From: a virus | Lineage: Duplodnaviria > Caudoviricetes | Length of the DNA stretch: 56,705 nucleotides | IMG/VR virus record: IMGVR_UViG_3300035162_003548 | Coordinates: 1 to 56,705 of that record | Strand: one strand, 5' to 3' | Translations under genes and position numbers: made by a program | Part shown: positions 3,256-56,300 of the stretch, in pieces | Numbering within the stretch: the stretch's first letter is position 1 | Layout: the number at the start of each line of letters is the position of its first letter | The notes under the pieces: model-generated | What the model saw: the letters and a program-made list of their open reading frames with translations, nothing else | Database searches by the model: none | Told to the model about the DNA's origin: nothing

Positions 3256-3528
3256 TCAAATAAAATCATGATTAGGTATTGCTGGAGGAACTACAATATC
3301 GTTTTTTGTTATAATCGTATAATTATATCCTTTAACTTCACAAATTGCCATCATAGCATCACCTTCAATTTCAAGTACATTAGTATCAGGGTAGTCTTCT
3401 TCCATCAACATAGAATATCTATTGGCATCATCTTCTTCTTCAAAAATGTATAAAATTTGATTTCCATTTTCGTCCTGAACGGAATATACTCCAGAGGTTT
3501 CTTTATCCTCTATAGTCAGAATAAACAT
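3256..3528 (-). CDS. DUF3110-like protein (cyanobacterial family)
   Basis: GVYSV...ILYIFEEEDDANRYSMLME...C...GY...VVPP resembles the DUF3110 pattern (FExEDDAxRY). Confidence 0.65.
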   Translation of the reverse strand: MFILTIEDKETSGVYSVQDENGNQILYIFEEEDDANRYSMLMEEDYPDTNVLEIEGDAMMAICEVKGYNYTIITKNDIVVPPAIPNHDFI

Positions 3529-51382: not shown

Positions 51383-53317
51383 TTATCTTACAATACTTCC
51401 TGCATTATAGCTGGAACTTACGGTATAATTTGATCCCGAAGGATCTGATCCTGAAGAAATTTGATCAACGATGGGTTCAACTAATGTCCTATCTAGTTGT
51501 AAATAAAGGTCCTGTAAACCTATAACGTCATTAGATAGTGGACATGCTGATATTTCTAAAACTTGTTGACTGTCTTTGGTTTTTCCTGCTATTATGTTAA
51601 GAGGATTTAAAGTTATCCTACCTTTTTCATAATCCACTAGGCCAACACCCTTTCTTCTTACAACTGGGGTTGTAGAATCTAAAGTTGGTAAAGAAATTAA
51701 ATTAATAACTCCAGTTTTTTTATCAGTGTTGGGGACATCAGTAAGGTACACATCATCACTAGTATCTATCAACCTAAATGCAGAGGACTTTATATTATAT
51801 CCATTCATAGATTTAACATAGAATGAATTTCCAAAATCAATAGCATATTCGGCAAATGTATTAAGTGCTAACCTCAAATCTCTTCTAATTTGAAGAGTTG
51901 TTATATTAGAAGTTATTGACACATGACTTTGATCTATAAGTCTTAAAAATTGACTATATTTGAATCTTGCACCATATCTATTTAATTCACTTGAATCTGC
52001 ATACTTTGTGATGTTTTCTTGTACTTTTGATGATACAGCAGATGAATTTGGTGATAAATTTGAGTTATAATACACTTTACTTTCAGATTCAATATAAAGA
52101 TATTTTAAATCTAAAATTTCAGGTATAATTCCTGCAACAGCATATTTTTTAAGACTTCTTTTTATATTTTCTTTAATTGCATTTGGAATGAAATCTCCAT
52201 TTCTAGGTTTTATACTAATAAAAACTTTTCCATATTGTGGTGGTACTAAGTCTTCCCCACCATACACAGAAATTGACTCAGTTTCTGGGTAAATTTTATT
52301 TGGAATTAATATTTCATAATCATTTGATGTCAATGCTCTATTTTGAGTTGCATAAATTTGTGGAGCATACTTTCTAACAGACTCTACACTTTCAATTTCT
52401 TCTCCACCACTAGATGAAAGTTCTGTTGAAACTAGAGATATTCCACTTGTAACCGGAAATCTACTACTACCTCTAGGATATTCTAAACTTCCACTAAACA
52501 CAAAGTTACTAATTCCATTAGCAGAATCACCGGAAGTTCTTATATAAGATGCTTCTATAATATTGCCATTTTCAAGTGCTTGGCCAAAAACATTATCTCC
52601 AAAAATTAATTCATATCTTTCATCTTCAACTTCTTGTATATAATATATTTTAGAACTTCCGCTAATTGCTGATCCTGTATTAGGATCAAAAAGATCATCT
52701 TGACGACTATATTTGAGGGAAACCGTTGAATTTTCTGATGGTTTGATTTTTACAACTAAAGTATCTAAATCAATTCCAGAATTTGACAGTACAAATTTTT
52801 GTTTGGAATTTGAAGTATCAACTTCAAAGGATTGATTAATAACAAATCCTTCATAAACTGTAATTCCATCAAAAAGTGCCACTCCATCAATAACAGATGC
52901 AGTTATATCCTCAGTAATACCGAAAACAAATGACTGATTATTAGAATTTCCAGATGATGATGCTACTGGACCTTTTTTTAATACTACGGTACTTGGTGGA
53001 TTTTTAATATTTGAAACATCTGCAAGGAAATTTATGTTTACTCTTGATGATTTTTTAGATCTAGGTACATATCCAATATTTCTTGCAAGTGATACTACAT
53101 TTTCTCTTAAAGTAGCACTATCAATAAACACCTCATTCGATACCATGTTGGCATTGTATGAGCTTATGTAAGTGTTATATGCTAATAAGTCAATAATAGT
53201 TGACAGATTAGACCCTTCAAAATCATAATCAGTAAAATTTGAATATGATCTTAGATAATCTTTGAGGGTAACCTTAATCTGGTCAAAATCCAGATTAGAA
53301 AAGTTTAAAAGAGGCAT
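51383..53317 (-). CDS. gp6: Baseplate wedge subunit
   Basis: LDFDQIK, FTDYDFEGSNL, LAYNTY, SATLRENVVSLARNIGY, QNRALTSNDY, YGKVFISIKP. Confidence 0.96.
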   Translation of the reverse strand: MPLLNFSNLDFDQIKVTLKDYLRSYSNFTDYDFEGSNLSTIIDLLAYNTYISSYNANMVSNEVFIDSATLRENVVSLARNIGYVPRSKKSSRVNINFLADVSNIKNPPSTVVLKKGPVASSSGNSNNQSFVFGITEDITASVIDGVALFDGITVYEGFVINQSFEVDTSNSKQKFVLSNSGIDLDTLVVKIKPSENSTVSLKYSRQDDLFDPNTGSAISGSSKIYYIQEVEDERYELIFGDNVFGQALENGNIIEASYIRTSGDSANGISNFVFSGSLEYPRGSSRFPVTSGISLVSTELSSSGGEEIESVESVRKYAPQIYATQNRALTSNDYEILIPNKIYPETESISVYGGEDLVPPQYGKVFISIKPRNGDFIPNAIKENIKRSLKKYAVAGIIPEILDLKYLYIESESKVYYNSNLSPNSSAVSSKVQENITKYADSSELNRYGARFKYSQFLRLIDQSHVSITSNITTLQIRRDLRLALNTFAEYAIDFGNSFYVKSMNGYNIKSSAFRLIDTSDDVYLTDVPNTDKKTGVINLISLPTLDSTTPVVRRKGVGLVDYEKGRITLNPLNIIAGKTKDSQQVLEISACPLSNDVIGLQDLYLQLDRTLVEPIVDQISSGSDPSGSNYTVSSSYNAGSIVR

Positions 53318-53719
53318 TTATCTTGTCGGTAGCAATACAAACTCTAATTGTTGCGGTGGAATATCGACACCAATAATGCGATATACAAGTTTTACATCAA
53401 AAGAATTGTTATCATAGTTGGGATTAGTCTCAACATCAATCAAAGCAACTCTTGGTTCATAATTATTGATTGAATTTTCAATCTCATCACGAATTGAAAT
53501 GGCACTTACATCATCCATATTTTCAAATAGTAACTTTGAGACATTTGATCCAAAATCTGGATCAAATAACTTTTCACCAGGAGAGGTTAAAATGATGTTT
53601 CTTACTGAACGGGCAATTGCAGTTGCGTTTTTAAGCGCAATAAGATCACTATTCAGGGGGTTAGCCTGAAATGTCATACTTATATCCTTGAAGGATTGGG
53701 ATACCCTTTCTAGAGGCAC
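53318..53719 (-). CDS. gp25: Baseplate wedge subunit, sheath initiator
   Basis: FKDISMTF, AIARSVRNIILT.PGEK.F.P.FGS, INNYEPRV. Confidence 0.95.
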   Translation of the reverse strand: MPLERVSQSFKDISMTFQANPLNSDLIALKNATAIARSVRNIILTSPGEKLFDPDFGSNVSKLLFENMDDVSAISIRDEIENSINNYEPRVALIDVETNPNYDNNSFDVKLVYRIIGVDIPPQQLEFVLLPTR

Positions 53720-53740: not shown

Positions 53741-53747
53741 TATTTAT
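53741..53747 (-). promoter_or_regulatory. Late promoter ATAAATA at the start of the baseplate operon
   Basis: Motif about 22 nt upstream of the gp25 start. Confidence 0.6.
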
Positions 53748-53750
53748 TCA

Positions 53751-53936
53751 CTAAAATTCAGTTAATATTGTAGGATCATTATTATCTTTGATTTGTTCAT
53801 CATTAATGACCTCATAAAGGTCTGTTTGAACCTTTGTGTCACGTTTTTTGGGTGTTAAATCATCATTTGCAATTTCACGAAGCATCTTTTGATGCTGATC
53901 GTTAGCCAAGTTGTCTAAAAAATCATGGTTTGTCAT
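53751..53936 (-). CDS. Hypothetical protein (61 aa)
   Basis: Likely start ATG 53936 (MTNHDFLDNLANDQHQKMLREIAND) preceded by GAGG; the track's longer version overlaps the upstream gene. Confidence 0.65.
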   Translation of the reverse strand: MTNHDFLDNLANDQHQKMLREIANDDLTPKKRDTKVQTDLYEVINDEQIKDNNDPTILTEF

Positions 53937-54609
53937 TACTTTCCTCTTTTTGTGGTAAATTTTCGCGTTCTTTTGCAGTTTTCCAAAAATACTCATCTTC
54001 ACGACCCATTCCGAGTCGGTCATAACCGTTTTCAACGCTATAGTATTGAGTGGAAACTTTAAAATCAGGCATTTTGGGGTCAACAGGAGTCAAACTGTTG
54101 TCAAAGATACGCATTCTATTGTTTGGATAGAGTGCATACTGACCATTCTCAAGTTCAATCAAGTTATGTGACTTATGTTCAGCTGGATTCTCACTCGTTG
54201 CATAGTCAATTACATCACAGTCCTGATGATAATTATCTATTGTACAGATATATTCACCTTTGACAATACCATGATCTCTGGTATAGCATTCAAAATCCAT
54301 TGAACCAATGAATTGCTTGTGAATTGACATAACACCATAATCCATACAGTTCCAGAACTGTAGGTTAGGAAGGTCCATATCGGGGTCTGGGACCCTCGGA
54401 GACGAGAGGAACGCGCTTATAGGTAGTTTGTCATACATTGCCGCATATTCGGGCAAATACGTCTCAAAATAGAAAGCACGTCCAGGTATCGACTTTGCCG
54501 AAATCCAGATACCTTTTACAAATTCTCCATGGCCTGATTGGTGATCAGTAAGGTATTCTTTTCTTACCCAGACCTCAACAGATGGGAGATTACAAATTAA
54601 TGCACTCAT
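53923..54609 (-). CDS. Conserved phage protein of unknown function
   Basis: MSALICNLP...WVRKEYL.DHQSGHGEF...LPISAF...WNCMDY...EHKSHN...NGQYALYPNNR; ATG 54609 overlaps the SET gene stop (ATGA). Confidence 0.8.
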   Translation of the reverse strand: MSALICNLPSVEVWVRKEYLTDHQSGHGEFVKGIWISAKSIPGRAFYFETYLPEYAAMYDKLPISAFLSSPRVPDPDMDLPNLQFWNCMDYGVMSIHKQFIGSMDFECYTRDHGIVKGEYICTIDNYHQDCDVIDYATSENPAEHKSHNLIELENGQYALYPNNRMRIFDNSLTPVDPKMPDFKVSTQYYSVENGYDRLGMGREDEYFWKTAKERENLPQKEESNDKP

Positions 54610-54974
54610 GTCCAAGTTCTCTCTAACTGAGAGTATCTATACAATAATTCTTCATCTTTTTTAATATCTTGAATTGCAATATAGAATTCATCATCATCAA
54701 TTCCTATATTTGGATTATCAGAATGATTTACATAGTATGCCTGATAGATTCTATCAAGGTCACAATCAATCCAGAATCCTTCATTATCACACCATGTTAA
54801 TGATGTAATGTTATCTTGCATCCATTCTGGTATTTGATTCCATAATATCTTTGTTGCTTTTTGACGTTTCTTCCAAATCATTGTACTCTTTGGAATATCA
54901 CACAAAGAAAAAACACCTACCCCGTCACAGACTTTGCTGGGAGCGAGATAGGTGTAAAGAGTTATATCATACAT
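54606..54974 (-). CDS. SET-domain protein-lysine methyltransferase (minimal, 122 aa)
   Basis: SET motifs PSKVCDGVGVFSLCDIPKST (GxG), YVNHSDNPN (NHSxxPN), AIQDIKKDEELLYRY (ELxxxY). Confidence 0.85.
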   Translation of the reverse strand: MYDITLYTYLAPSKVCDGVGVFSLCDIPKSTMIWKKRQKATKILWNQIPEWMQDNITSLTWCDNEGFWIDCDLDRIYQAYYVNHSDNPNIGIDDDEFYIAIQDIKKDEELLYRYSQLERTWT

Positions 54975-55120
54975 TAACCGCGGCCTTGACCACGATATAG
55001 TTTCTTTTTACCATTACGTGATGTTGGTGATAACTTAGTATTAACCGAGCGACCTTGACGAGTTCTTTTTGGTGCTGCTCTTTGAAATTCAAGTTTATTA
55101 CTACTGTACATTTTGGCCAT
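54974..55120 (-). CDS. 48-aa Lys/Arg-rich basic peptide
   Basis: Not in the track. MAKMYSSNKLEFQRAAPKRTRQGRSVNTKLSPTSRNGKKKLYRGQGRG*; GGAGGAG RBS upstream; TAATG overlap with the SET start. Confidence 0.8.
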   Translation of the reverse strand: MAKMYSSNKLEFQRAAPKRTRQGRSVNTKLSPTSRNGKKKLYRGQGRG

Positions 55121-55304
55121 CTGTATGCTCCTCCATAGAAATTAAATTGGCATCAAACATATCCTTACCTTCTGAAGGACTTTCATAATAACGTTCTGCA
55201 AGATCTTGCATTACATCAAGACATTCTTCATACGAGAGGTTTTGATGAATTTTCTCTCCTGCATAAAGAATGTCAAATCTTTTAGATAATACGAGTTTTT
55301 TCAT
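55101..55304 (-). CDS. Hypothetical protein
   Basis: 67-aa ORF (FDILYAGEKIHQNLSYEEC..VMQDLAERYY) between the glycosyltransferase and the basic peptide; start uncertain. Confidence 0.6.
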   Translation of the reverse strand: MKKLVLSKRFDILYAGEKIHQNLSYEECLDVMQDLAERYYESPSEGKDMFDANLISMEEHTDGQNVQ

Positions 55305-56049
55305 GACCTACACGAATACGAGGATCGCACCAAATTTCAAATCCTTCATCCTTGGCATCAAGACAGAATGAGACATCCTCACCACACATGTCTTGTACTT
55401 CACCAGACTCAAAGACTTGCATCTTAGGTGCAAACCATGGATACTCAAGATTCTCAAAGACACCCTTCTTAATTAATACCCATCCGAAACCTGTATAATC
55501 AACAGTAAAAGGCTTCTTACGCTTACTGATGGATTCGACAGTCTCGTGATTCATCACTCCACCATTCTTACGGAAATCATCTTCCTCTAACCAGTGCGCG
55601 ACAGATGTTGTGTGTCCATCCTCTGTGGCATACCATCCTGCAGCAATCTCTTTCTCCTCTCCTTCTGCACTCAGTGCAACATCACAAAGCTGCCAGAACT
55701 TGGTTGTGTCAAATACAATATCACTATCAATCCATAACTGATAGTCATACTCTAATTTACCATCCCATGGTACTTGCTTAGAACCACGTAATACATTTGC
55801 TCCTAGTACCTTACAACGTGCAAAGTTTACCATAGAAGAGTAATCTTGACTGATCTGAATGCTCATGCCATTCTGTACCATGTCAAAACATAACTGTACA
55901 AAATTCTTTAGAAAGGTATAAGAGCATCCACGCCCAGGAAGACAGAATACAATTGCTTTACCACGCATTCTCTCCTTAATTGCATCGATGTCCCACTCTG
56001 CTTCTTTTTGCTTTGGTGCAACAGTCTTAACTTTAAATCCTTTAGCCAT
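55282..56049 (-). CDS. Glycosyltransferase, GT-A fold
   Basis: IVFCLPG, ARC, YDYQLWIDSDIVF (DxD), VDYTGFGWVLIKKGVFE, GEDVSFC, IRVGHEK. Confidence 0.85.
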   Translation of the reverse strand: MAKGFKVKTVAPKQKEAEWDIDAIKERMRGKAIVFCLPGRGCSYTFLKNFVQLCFDMVQNGMSIQISQDYSSMVNFARCKVLGANVLRGSKQVPWDGKLEYDYQLWIDSDIVFDTTKFWQLCDVALSAEGEEKEIAAGWYATEDGHTTSVAHWLEEDDFRKNGGVMNHETVESISKRKKPFTVDYTGFGWVLIKKGVFENLEYPWFAPKMQVFESGEVQDMCGEDVSFCLDAKDEGFEIWCDPRIRVGHEKTRII

Positions 56050-56072
56050 AGTTTGAAATAACCTTCAATTCA

Positions 56073-56101
56073 ATTCTATCGTAGTATGTATATCTTGTCA
56101 A
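56073..56101 (-). promoter_or_regulatory. Sigma70-like early promoter for the glycosyltransferase-SET block
   Basis: Minus strand TTGACA-N17-TAGAAT. Confidence 0.75.
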
Positions 56102-56111
56102 TCCTTTCGGA

Positions 56112-56300
56112 TCAATAAGAATTTTCTTGATTGTCAATCGAGAGTTTTAACTCCTCATATGATAAATCCTCAAGTTGATAGTCAGTCTGCATTAGACCAA
56201 CCATCCCCTTGAGGGTATTCCATGTCTTATTAAATTGTGTCTCACTTAGATTATTATATAAGCATTCATCCTTTGCATATATGTGATATACCTTAGACAT
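56112..56300 (-). CDS. Hypothetical protein
   Basis: 62-aa ORF with GGAGG RBS (MSKVYHIYAKDECLYNNLSE...). Confidence 0.7.
   Translation of the reverse strand: MSKVYHIYAKDECLYNNLSETQFNKTWNTLKGMVGLMQTDYQLEDLSYEELKLSIDNQENSY

Follow-up and report, generated by a model that had tools for sequence, protein, structure and literature searches.

The subject of this work is a short SET-domain gene (SET122) carried by a DNA stretch of 56,705 nucleotides (nt), referred to below as the window, which covers positions 1 to 56,705 of the IMG/VR virus record IMGVR_UViG_3300035162_003548 (Duplodnaviria; Caudoviricetes). The record is estimated to be 27% complete, and its nearest named relative across the stretch is Synechococcus phage SynMITS9220M01 (Kyanoviridae). 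SET122 encodes 122 amino acids (aa) and lies between the gene of a 48-aa Lys/Arg-rich peptide and a 228-aa gene. In our opinion SET122 is probably an accessory minimal SET protein-lysine methyltransferase located in a variable island, and its most likely target is a conserved basic host protein. The original prediction, made from the sequence alone, had regarded the enzyme and the peptide as a dedicated writer-substrate pair. The gene identities and the tight coupling of the genes are as it described. The pairing is not supported, given that the peptide mostly occurs without a SET gene, its core is unchanged where a SET gene is present, and the slot after it is variable.

Results

SET122 is a minimal SET-domain protein

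SET122 matches the Pfam family PF00856 (E 3.5e-10; 40.7 bits against a cut-off of 22.4), and its residues 18-114 cover positions 1-104 of the 105 positions of the profile. The locus was also recovered by a search of genomes, and about 196 clusters of homologues of 120-125 aa are found in marine metagenomes. Residue conservation was read from an alignment of 26 sequences that are 50-83% identical to the SET122 of the window. Invariant in this alignment are G18, G20, V21 and F22 near the N-terminus, which align with GLGLY of MLL3; Y80, Y81, N83, H84 and N89 of YYVNHSDNPN, a segment that aligns with YINHSCAPN of MLL3; E108, E109 and Y114 of EELLYRY, which aligns with EELCYDY of MLL3; and also W121. 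We take the three segments to be the GxG motif that binds S-adenosylmethionine (SAM), the NHS/C-x-x-PN motif, and the EL-x-F/Y-x-Y motif with the catalytic tyrosine.

A PDB search with the single SET122 sequence gave only matches at chance level, while a profile search succeeded: the profile of the SET122 alignment matches the SET domains of MLL3/MLL4 (E about 2e-6, positions 6-117) with the three motifs in register. The AlphaFold2 (AF2) model of SET122 has a predicted local distance difference test score (pLDDT) of 80.6, with low-confidence segments at residues 71-80 and at the C-terminus. All 43 Foldseek matches listed for this model (E <= 1.6e-3; 31 of them at E <= 0.001) are SET domains or SET-like PR domains, including MLL3/4, S. 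pombe Set7, a Plasmodium SET, SETD8, EZH2 and the chlorovirus vSET. Their probability is 1.00, but the template modelling (TM) scores are 0.41-0.49 at a root-mean-square deviation of about 11-13 Å, and the knot-like core is unverified in detail. SET122 has no pre-SET or post-SET region and is acidic, with an isoelectric point (pI) of 4.3-4.6. Judged by its identity and by the integrity of its motifs, SET122 is an intact minimal SET-domain enzyme, whose catalytic activity we infer.

A scan of 185,579 representative genomes with patterns of the SET122 clade found no close cellular homologue (distant cellular SETs were not sought); its only matches were one fragment of a metagenome-assembled genome and one short match. 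In public annotation, the gene is named "SET domain-containing protein-lysine N-methyltransferase" in Sf-CH1b and "methyltransferase" in two other genomes. In SynMITS9220M01 it is annotated merely as a 65-aa C-terminal fragment (SynMITS9220M01_078; 3305-3499 of locus L001, loci being numbered here with the prefix L).

Arrangement of the locus

All genes of the locus are transcribed from the minus strand, in the order 255-aa gene, 67-aa open reading frame (ORF), 48-aa peptide, SET122, 228-aa gene, 62-aa ORF, gp25, gp6. The features are as follows.

56101-56073, minus strand: sigma-70-like site TTGACA-17-TAGAAT (11 of 12 positions match the consensus)
55282-56049, minus strand: 255-aa gene, phrog_1574, weakly glycosyltransferase-like; first gene past the sigma-70-like site
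55101-55304, minus strand: 67-aa ORF, phrog_3252; its end overlaps the peptide start by 20 nt
55129-55135, minus strand: Shine-Dalgarno-like GGAGGAG, 8 nt ahead of the peptide ATG, read from the sequence
54974-55120, minus strand: 48-aa Lys/Arg-rich peptide gene, phrog_516; small and conserved, in the baseplate module of cyanomyoviruses
54606-54974, minus strand: 122-aa SET gene (SET122), PF00856; minimal SET-domain protein
53923-54609, minus strand: 228-aa gene, phrog_3704; conserved in cyanophages
53751-53939, minus strand: 62-aa ORF between the 228-aa gene and gp25; homologues in related loci
53318-53719, minus strand: gp25-like baseplate wedge subunit, annotated thus in relatives; downstream border of the island
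51383-53317, minus strand: gp6 baseplate gene

The TAA of the peptide overlaps the ATG of SET122 as TAATG, and the TGA of SET122 overlaps the ATG of the 228-aa gene (at 54609) as ATGA; started from the TTG at 54615, the latter gene would encode 230 aa. The original prediction gave the coordinates and descriptions of the basic peptide, the SET protein, the 228-aa gene, both overlaps and the strong ribosome-binding site correctly. The arrangement of peptide, SET122 and 228-aa gene was also assembled independently, in a 1508-nt contig over 53877-55384 from a run of unrecorded type.

The 48-aa peptide is a conserved gene

Residues 5-47 of the peptide align with positions 6-48 of the 48-position phrog_516 profile (E 1.5e-17). 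The peptide has a pI of 11.9 and contains seven Lys, seven Arg and one acidic residue. Its core reads PKK(T/S)RQG-x5-T-x5-S-R-N-x3-K-x-YRGQG, with K18 and K40 invariant. Among 72 unique cores, picked by motif matching in 84 of 100 sources so that some columns are fixed by the selection, the mean pairwise differences at codon positions 1, 2 and 3 are 0.226, 0.172 and 0.564, and the ratio of nonsynonymous to synonymous polymorphism (pN/pS) is 0.27. Because third codon positions vary most and pN/pS is this low, purifying selection acts on the peptide gene, which is truly protein-coding and not a chance ORF.

By tblastn the peptide is found in 387 phage records, all of them cyanophages, and it occurs in at least 574 IMG/VR stretches; each of the four cyanomyovirus records tested has exactly one copy. 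It has no match in Pfam or NCBIfam, and its Atlas matches are clusters of hypothetical proteins only. Its annotation varies: some genomes have it as a hypothetical protein, while others have a call in the wrong frame or none at all. In SynMITS9220M01, for example, the gene is unannotated and an ORF in a different frame is called instead, and in S-SM2, P-HM1 and S-T4 it is uncalled.

SET122 is rare and the peptide is the same without it

SET122 is present in seven of 50,697 phage records searched by tblastn (SynMITS9220M01, the S-B05/S-B43/RN05-S/RB11-B group, and Sf-CH1b) and in 10 close IMG/VR loci. This rarity confirms an earlier statement that SET genes are not part of the T4-like core. No SET122 gene was seen without the peptide in the loci examined. 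The peptide, on the other hand, is mostly found without SET: an adjacent SET gene accompanies it in 10 of the 387 records (SET122 in seven, and a second short SET, SET94, in three), leaving about 97% of the records that carry the peptide without one. Peptide loci were counted in the 80 IMG/VR loci most similar to the query alignment, out of the at least 574 stretches; SET122 occurs in 0 of these 80 and SET94 in one. Thus, the mutual dependence expected of a dedicated pair, each member rarely occurring without the other, is not observed.

The closest relatives of the peptide (L020-L023, 68-75% identical) have the same gene order and no SET gene. According to DNA alignment, the peptide stop of L020 and L023 is separated by a spacer of about 25 nt from the start codon (ATG) of the 228-aa gene; the SET122 ORF of the window takes the exact place of this spacer, as a clean insertion of about 340 nt. 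The peptide sequence does not differ where SET is present: cores of loci with SET are interspersed with cores of loci without it, and the core of L009 (with SET) is identical to that of L038 (without SET). A predicted complex of SET122, peptide and SAM scored 0.02 against a mark of 0.32; the fold of the peptide is uncertain, and this result counts neither way.

Variable accessory genes between the peptide and gp25

In 76 of the 80 peptide loci, gp25 and gp6 lie downstream of the peptide, at a peptide-gp25 distance of 69-1985 nt (median 926 nt). The most compact order, found in S-RIM8 and P-HM1, is PAAR protein, peptide, gp25, gp6. Because of this constancy of gp25 and gp6 and of the compact order, the peptide gene is a fixed landmark of the cyanomyovirus baseplate gene block. 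Directly upstream of it lies PAAR in 13/80 loci and a homologue of the 67-aa ORF in 34/80. The gene directly downstream varies:

228-aa "PurM-like" gene: 39/80 loci
unknown ORFs: 25/80 loci
gp25 itself: 7/80 loci
2-oxoglutarate (2OG)-Fe(II) oxygenase: 4/80 loci
heme oxygenase: 1/80 loci
HbpS-like: 1/80 loci
ATE_C-like: 1/80 loci
LtfC-like: 1/80 loci
short SET (SET94, locus L086): 1/80 loci

The peptide-gp25 interval is thus a hot spot of cyanomyoviruses for accessory genes. Since a heme oxygenase occupies the same position as SET122, adjacency to the peptide alone implies no functional link. Accessory genes seen in the island include heme oxygenases (L057, L108), an HbpS-like haem-degrading protein (L089), 2OG-Fe(II) oxygenases (L053, L058, L092, L096, L106), an arginine-tRNA-protein-transferase-like ORF (L081; PF04377, E 3e-5), an LtfC-like domain (L074) and many unknown ORFs.

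A second lineage of short SET genes occurs with and without the peptide

In L086 a 94-aa SET protein (PF00856, E 5.1e-10) is encoded between the peptide and gp25. It is about 30% identical to SET122, in the C-terminal half only. The family to which it belongs (SET94; 93-111 aa) is represented in 157 IMG/VR stretches, and the following locus counts refer to the best 80 of them. SET94 lies directly upstream of gp25 in 26 of the 80 loci, all from cyanomyoviruses, sometimes with overlapping stop and start codons. The other 54 have no peptide or gp25 within 2.5 kb; their neighbours are DNA primase, DNA polymerase with Cas4-type exonuclease, terminase, thioredoxin, 2OG-Fe(II) oxygenase, HNH endonuclease and SAM decarboxylase. 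None of five SET94-bearing records from outside the cyanomyoviruses, including a complete 80,952-bp genome with terminal repeats, matched in a peptide profile search that detected the peptide in 4/4 cyanomyovirus records used as a positive control. In peptide-less loci there is no basic small ORF upstream of SET either (the fraction of Lys plus Arg is at most 0.20). The SET94 proteins are neutral to basic (pI 6.7-9.0).

Named phages give the same picture. Peptide, SET94 and gp25 lie in a row in P-RSM6 and in marine virus AG-345-P14. In P-SSM7 the SET gene stands beside nrdA, nrdB and talC, 113 kb from the peptide gene. Pelagibacter phage Kolga has a SET gene, and the peptide was searched for there and not found; Pseudoalteromonas phage PH1 also carries a SET gene. 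Thus, in the SET94 lineage, SET genes are not confined to peptide-encoding genomes, and relatives occur with the peptide absent or distant, an unlinked placement that the original prediction itself had named as telling against the pair.

In L173 (2103-2483) and likewise in L180, an S-adenosylmethionine decarboxylase gene (PF02675, E 1.1e-13) directly precedes the short SET gene, so that two SAM-using enzymes stand side by side in peptide-less phages.

Phylogeny of the short SET proteins

Two trees were built on about 100 columns, a quick one with 67 unique sequences and a careful one with 32. Both split SET122 from the SET94 superclade with 100/100 support and a long branch. The careful tree has the cyanomyoviral SET94 as one clade (99/95) with two primase-context rows among its members; the quick tree, which has more rows, places cyanomyoviral SET94 nested among SETs of peptide-less phages. 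On the evidence of these sequences, minimal SET genes form at least two phage-restricted lineages, and the topology suggests two separate SET arrivals in the same island. An approximately unbiased (AU) test, however, does not reject a tree in which both cyanomyoviral groups are held together (log-likelihood 6.28 lower, p 0.329). With this p value and the small number of columns, either one arrival or two would fit the data.

The non-cyanomyovirus SET94 of L123, L125 (behind which is the 80,952-bp record) and L127, 55-57% identical to that of L086, is nested inside the cyanomyoviral SET94 clade. Such nesting suggests an exchange of SET genes between unrelated marine phages.

Promoter-like motifs and expression

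The sigma-70-like site precedes the 255-aa gene by 24 nt and the peptide gene by about 950 nt. The genes had been described as standing downstream of an early sigma70 promoter. A site with 11 of 12 matching positions is indeed found upstream, but sites of this class number 19 in the window against 13.5 +/- 4.0 in shuffled sequences and are therefore not above background. Two metatranscriptome runs, with one contig each, gave none on the peptide or SET122 and are uninformative on their expression; the contigs map to the 255-aa gene or next to it (55720-55894 and 56029-56200).

An ATAAATA-like motif, of a kind that we presume to resemble T4-type late promoters, is present in the window at 53741-53747 on the minus strand, about 21 nt before gp25. 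In loci without SET and in SET94 loci, such a motif stands right at the peptide stop codon (CTAAATA, CATAAATAA, TTAAATAAG), at about 2621-2630 in L086, 2474-2483 in L117 and 2645-2653 in L020; the insertion of SET122 in the window removes this copy. An exact search of the window for TATAAATA returned four matches, fewer than expected by chance and none in this region.

Discussion

Possible targets of SET122

We propose that SET122 was inserted as an accessory gene into an island of Kyanoviridae that is delimited by the peptide gene and gp25. The close overlaps of stop and start codons would then be ordinary phage gene packing, because SET122 is coupled just as tightly to the unrelated 228-aa gene after it. 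The enzyme would be catalytically active and would methylate lysines of a basic protein, presumably in the course of infection. Its target would be a conserved bacterial protein, for example, a ribosomal, nucleoid-associated or translation-factor protein; such a target seems most likely because phages that infect other hosts and have no peptide gene also carry related SETs. At least in the case of the SET94 lineage, the data suggest a target that is common to many bacteria or to phages in general. The neighbouring peptide could be one of the substrates, but it would not be the reason for the existence of the SET gene. An accessory gene in a hot spot fits better than a two-gene module because the peptide is near-universal, SET is rare and the peptide is unchanged by its presence. 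It is also favoured by the unrelated genes that share the slot and by the SET relatives in peptide-less phages. Host targets had been named earlier as the alternative to the pair; they agree better with the distribution of the SET genes, the kind of target being presumed.

Several observations weigh against this reading. The peptide is directly upstream of SET122 in 13 of 13 loci, at SET identities of 47-99% (in two of them just the peptide end is visible, at the locus edge). The junction between the two genes is an overlap of 1 or 4 nt or spacer-free in 11 of the 12 loci with both ends, the remaining one having a 71-nt spacer. The peptide is also seen in 21 of the 26 SET94 loci of the baseplate slot, directly adjacent in 14, with 4 of the 26 cut too close to SET to judge; in L106 a 2OG-Fe(II) oxygenase is present, and the 1.3 kb upstream of SET94 contain no peptide gene. 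If SET arrived twice, the shared slot hints at a local link. Finally, the acidity of SET122, in contrast to the neutral to basic SET94 proteins, would match a strongly basic target like the peptide, and by analogy there is a reported precedent of prokaryotic SETs acting on small basic DNA-binding proteins (cpnSET and Go1-SET, described below).

These points can be read as evidence for a writer-substrate pair, in which the co-translated peptide would be what the enzyme acts on physiologically, its binding to nucleic acids or partners would be tuned by lysine methylation, and SET would be an optional modifier. The complete adjacency and tight junctions of SET122, a second SET lineage in the same slot, the richness of the peptide in Lys and Arg with K18 and K40 invariant, the acidity of SET122, and the reported activity of prokaryotic SETs on small basic proteins (PMC3980110) are all in line with it. 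So is the presence of other protein-modifying enzyme classes (2OG-Fe(II) oxygenases and the ATE_C-like protein) directly after the peptide in some loci. We still regard such a pair as unlikely. As described above, about 97% of the peptide records have no SET, the peptide sequences are the same in genomes with and without it, clearly unrelated genes such as heme oxygenase stand at the same position, P-SSM7 has its SET gene and its peptide gene far apart, and SET relatives exist without the peptide. Moreover, in 7 of the 21 SET94 baseplate loci with the peptide another gene (heme oxygenase in L108) separates it from SET, and SET stays beside gp25. The 13 of 13 may represent a single observation if the SET122 loci descend from one insertion, and even a common origin of both lineages is compatible with the AU test. 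Of the checks that the original prediction had offered, co-occurrence speaks against the pair, as 377 of 387 peptide records do without an adjacent SET; adjacency is mixed, being complete in the SET122 loci examined and incomplete for SET94.

In a broader version, the conserved peptide would be virion- or DNA-associated and would be decorated, in different phage lineages, by interchangeable tailoring enzymes encoded directly downstream, namely, two separately recruited SETs, 2OG-Fe(II) oxygenases and an aminoacyl-transferase-like protein. We consider this rather improbable; if true, it would mean a phage-encoded histone-tail-like peptide with an optional modification layer. Methylation of structural or assembly proteins of the phage (gp25, gp6 or other virion proteins), for instance, for stabilisation or protection from proteases, would explain why both SET lineages lie inside the PAAR-peptide-gp25-gp6 block and why gp25 directly follows SET94 in each of the 26 loci of the baseplate slot. 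The ATAAATA-like motifs at the peptide stop before SET94 would, by their presumed likeness to late promoters, place SET94 late. Yet elsewhere SET relatives sit in replication or nucleotide-metabolism blocks, and the window has a sigma-70-like site before the block and an ATAAATA-like motif only after it, before gp25. Such a target is in our view decidedly improbable. It is very improbable that SET122 is not an active lysine methyltransferase at all, being a degenerate SET fold that serves as a binding module or an enzyme with a non-protein substrate. The lack of a post-SET region, the end of the protein eight residues past the presumed catalytic Tyr, the low-confidence AF2 segments and structural TM scores of only about 0.45-0.49 would agree with this. 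Nevertheless, all SAM-binding and catalytic motif residues aligned with MLL3 are invariant across the 26 homologues, and the chlorovirus vSET is active without a post-SET region.

Known SET enzymes and significance

Most of what is known of SET methyltransferases concerns the methylation of histones; bacterial and archaeal examples are few. The best profile matches to SET122 are the SET domains of MLL3/MLL4 (KMT2C/KMT2D), along which the whole domain aligns with its motifs in register. SET122 differs from them in its length of 122 aa, in the lack of pre-SET, post-SET and partner-binding regions, and in its histone-free bacterial host; its identity to solved SET domains is only about 17-26%. 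Another similar protein is vSET of Paramecium bursaria chlorella virus 1 (PDB 3kma), which is likewise viral and minimal and has no post-SET cysteines. It ranks seventh among the fold matches of SET122 (target-normalised TM 0.52). However, it is only 17% identical to SET122, is not the nearest protein by sequence, and belongs to a virus with a eukaryotic host; its target, K27 of histone H3, does not exist in cyanobacteria.

According to PMC3980110, cpnSET of C. pneumoniae methylates Hc1 and Go1-SET of M. mazei methylates MC1-alpha, both substrates being small basic DNA-binding proteins. Like SET122, these are small SET enzymes of histone-free or histone-poor cells (PMC3980110). They differ in being cellular, and adjacent genes for enzyme and substrate are not reported in the passages of PMC3980110 concerned; here the proteins are likened by description. 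By this analogy, cpnSET and Go1-SET are the best precedent for a basic-protein target, whether of the host or of the phage.

Within phages, SET94 (for example, CPXG_00131 of P-RSM6, PSSM7_204 of P-SSM7 and gp27 of Pelagibacter phage Kolga) resembles SET122 in being phage-restricted and minimal, in its NHSDNPN and EEL..Y motifs, and in having one sub-clade in the same island. It lacks the insert of about 30 residues that SET122 has between the GxG and NHS motifs, and it differs in its many genome contexts and host groups. Our literature search on SET domains and lysine methyltransferases in cyanophages and bacteriophages returned no study of phage SET enzymes; PMC2938197, in the passages concerned, treats dioxygenase arrays of cyanophages and not SET. 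SET122 is thus a known kind of enzyme in a phage setting for which we found no prior study.

Minimal SET genes occur in marine cyanomyoviruses as well as in phages that infect Pelagibacter and Pseudoalteromonas. Identifying their targets would reveal what phages do with protein lysine methylation in hosts that have no histones and dominate the productivity of the ocean. The analysis also draws attention to the 48-aa basic gene, which nearly all cyanomyoviruses have in their baseplate module and which is often left unannotated. The hot spot between this gene and gp25 is useful for annotation, and gene adjacency there should be read with caution.

Additional observations

The 228-aa gene lies directly downstream of SET122 in 12/12 loci with DNA there. 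Its protein matches phrog_3704 (E 1.7e-114), a family labelled "ferredoxin". Public names for the phrog_3704 gene in the window and in L001 and L014-L016 include purM/phosphoribosylaminoimidazole synthetase, ferredoxin, transcriptional regulator and virion structural protein. PurM (aminoimidazole ribonucleotide synthase) and ferredoxin were rejected as identities, neither family matching at E <= 1 in Pfam or NCBIfam. The protein has no match of any kind in Pfam or NCBIfam and no usable Atlas match, its PDB profile search was empty, and its AF2 model is poor (pLDDT 46.3). Judging by these searches, the public names of the gene look unsupported.

A distant 159-aa SET protein with a Cys-rich insert is encoded in L012 (1272-4781), which belongs to a 216-kb viral contig, and the same SET match is found in L013. 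In L012 the SET gene is flanked by an ATP-grasp gene of the tubulin-tyrosine-ligase family (PF03133, E 3.6e-26) and by a gene for a Hint/intein-domain protein, and a glycosyltransferase-like gene adjoins the cluster. This may be a protein-modification cluster of a large phage.

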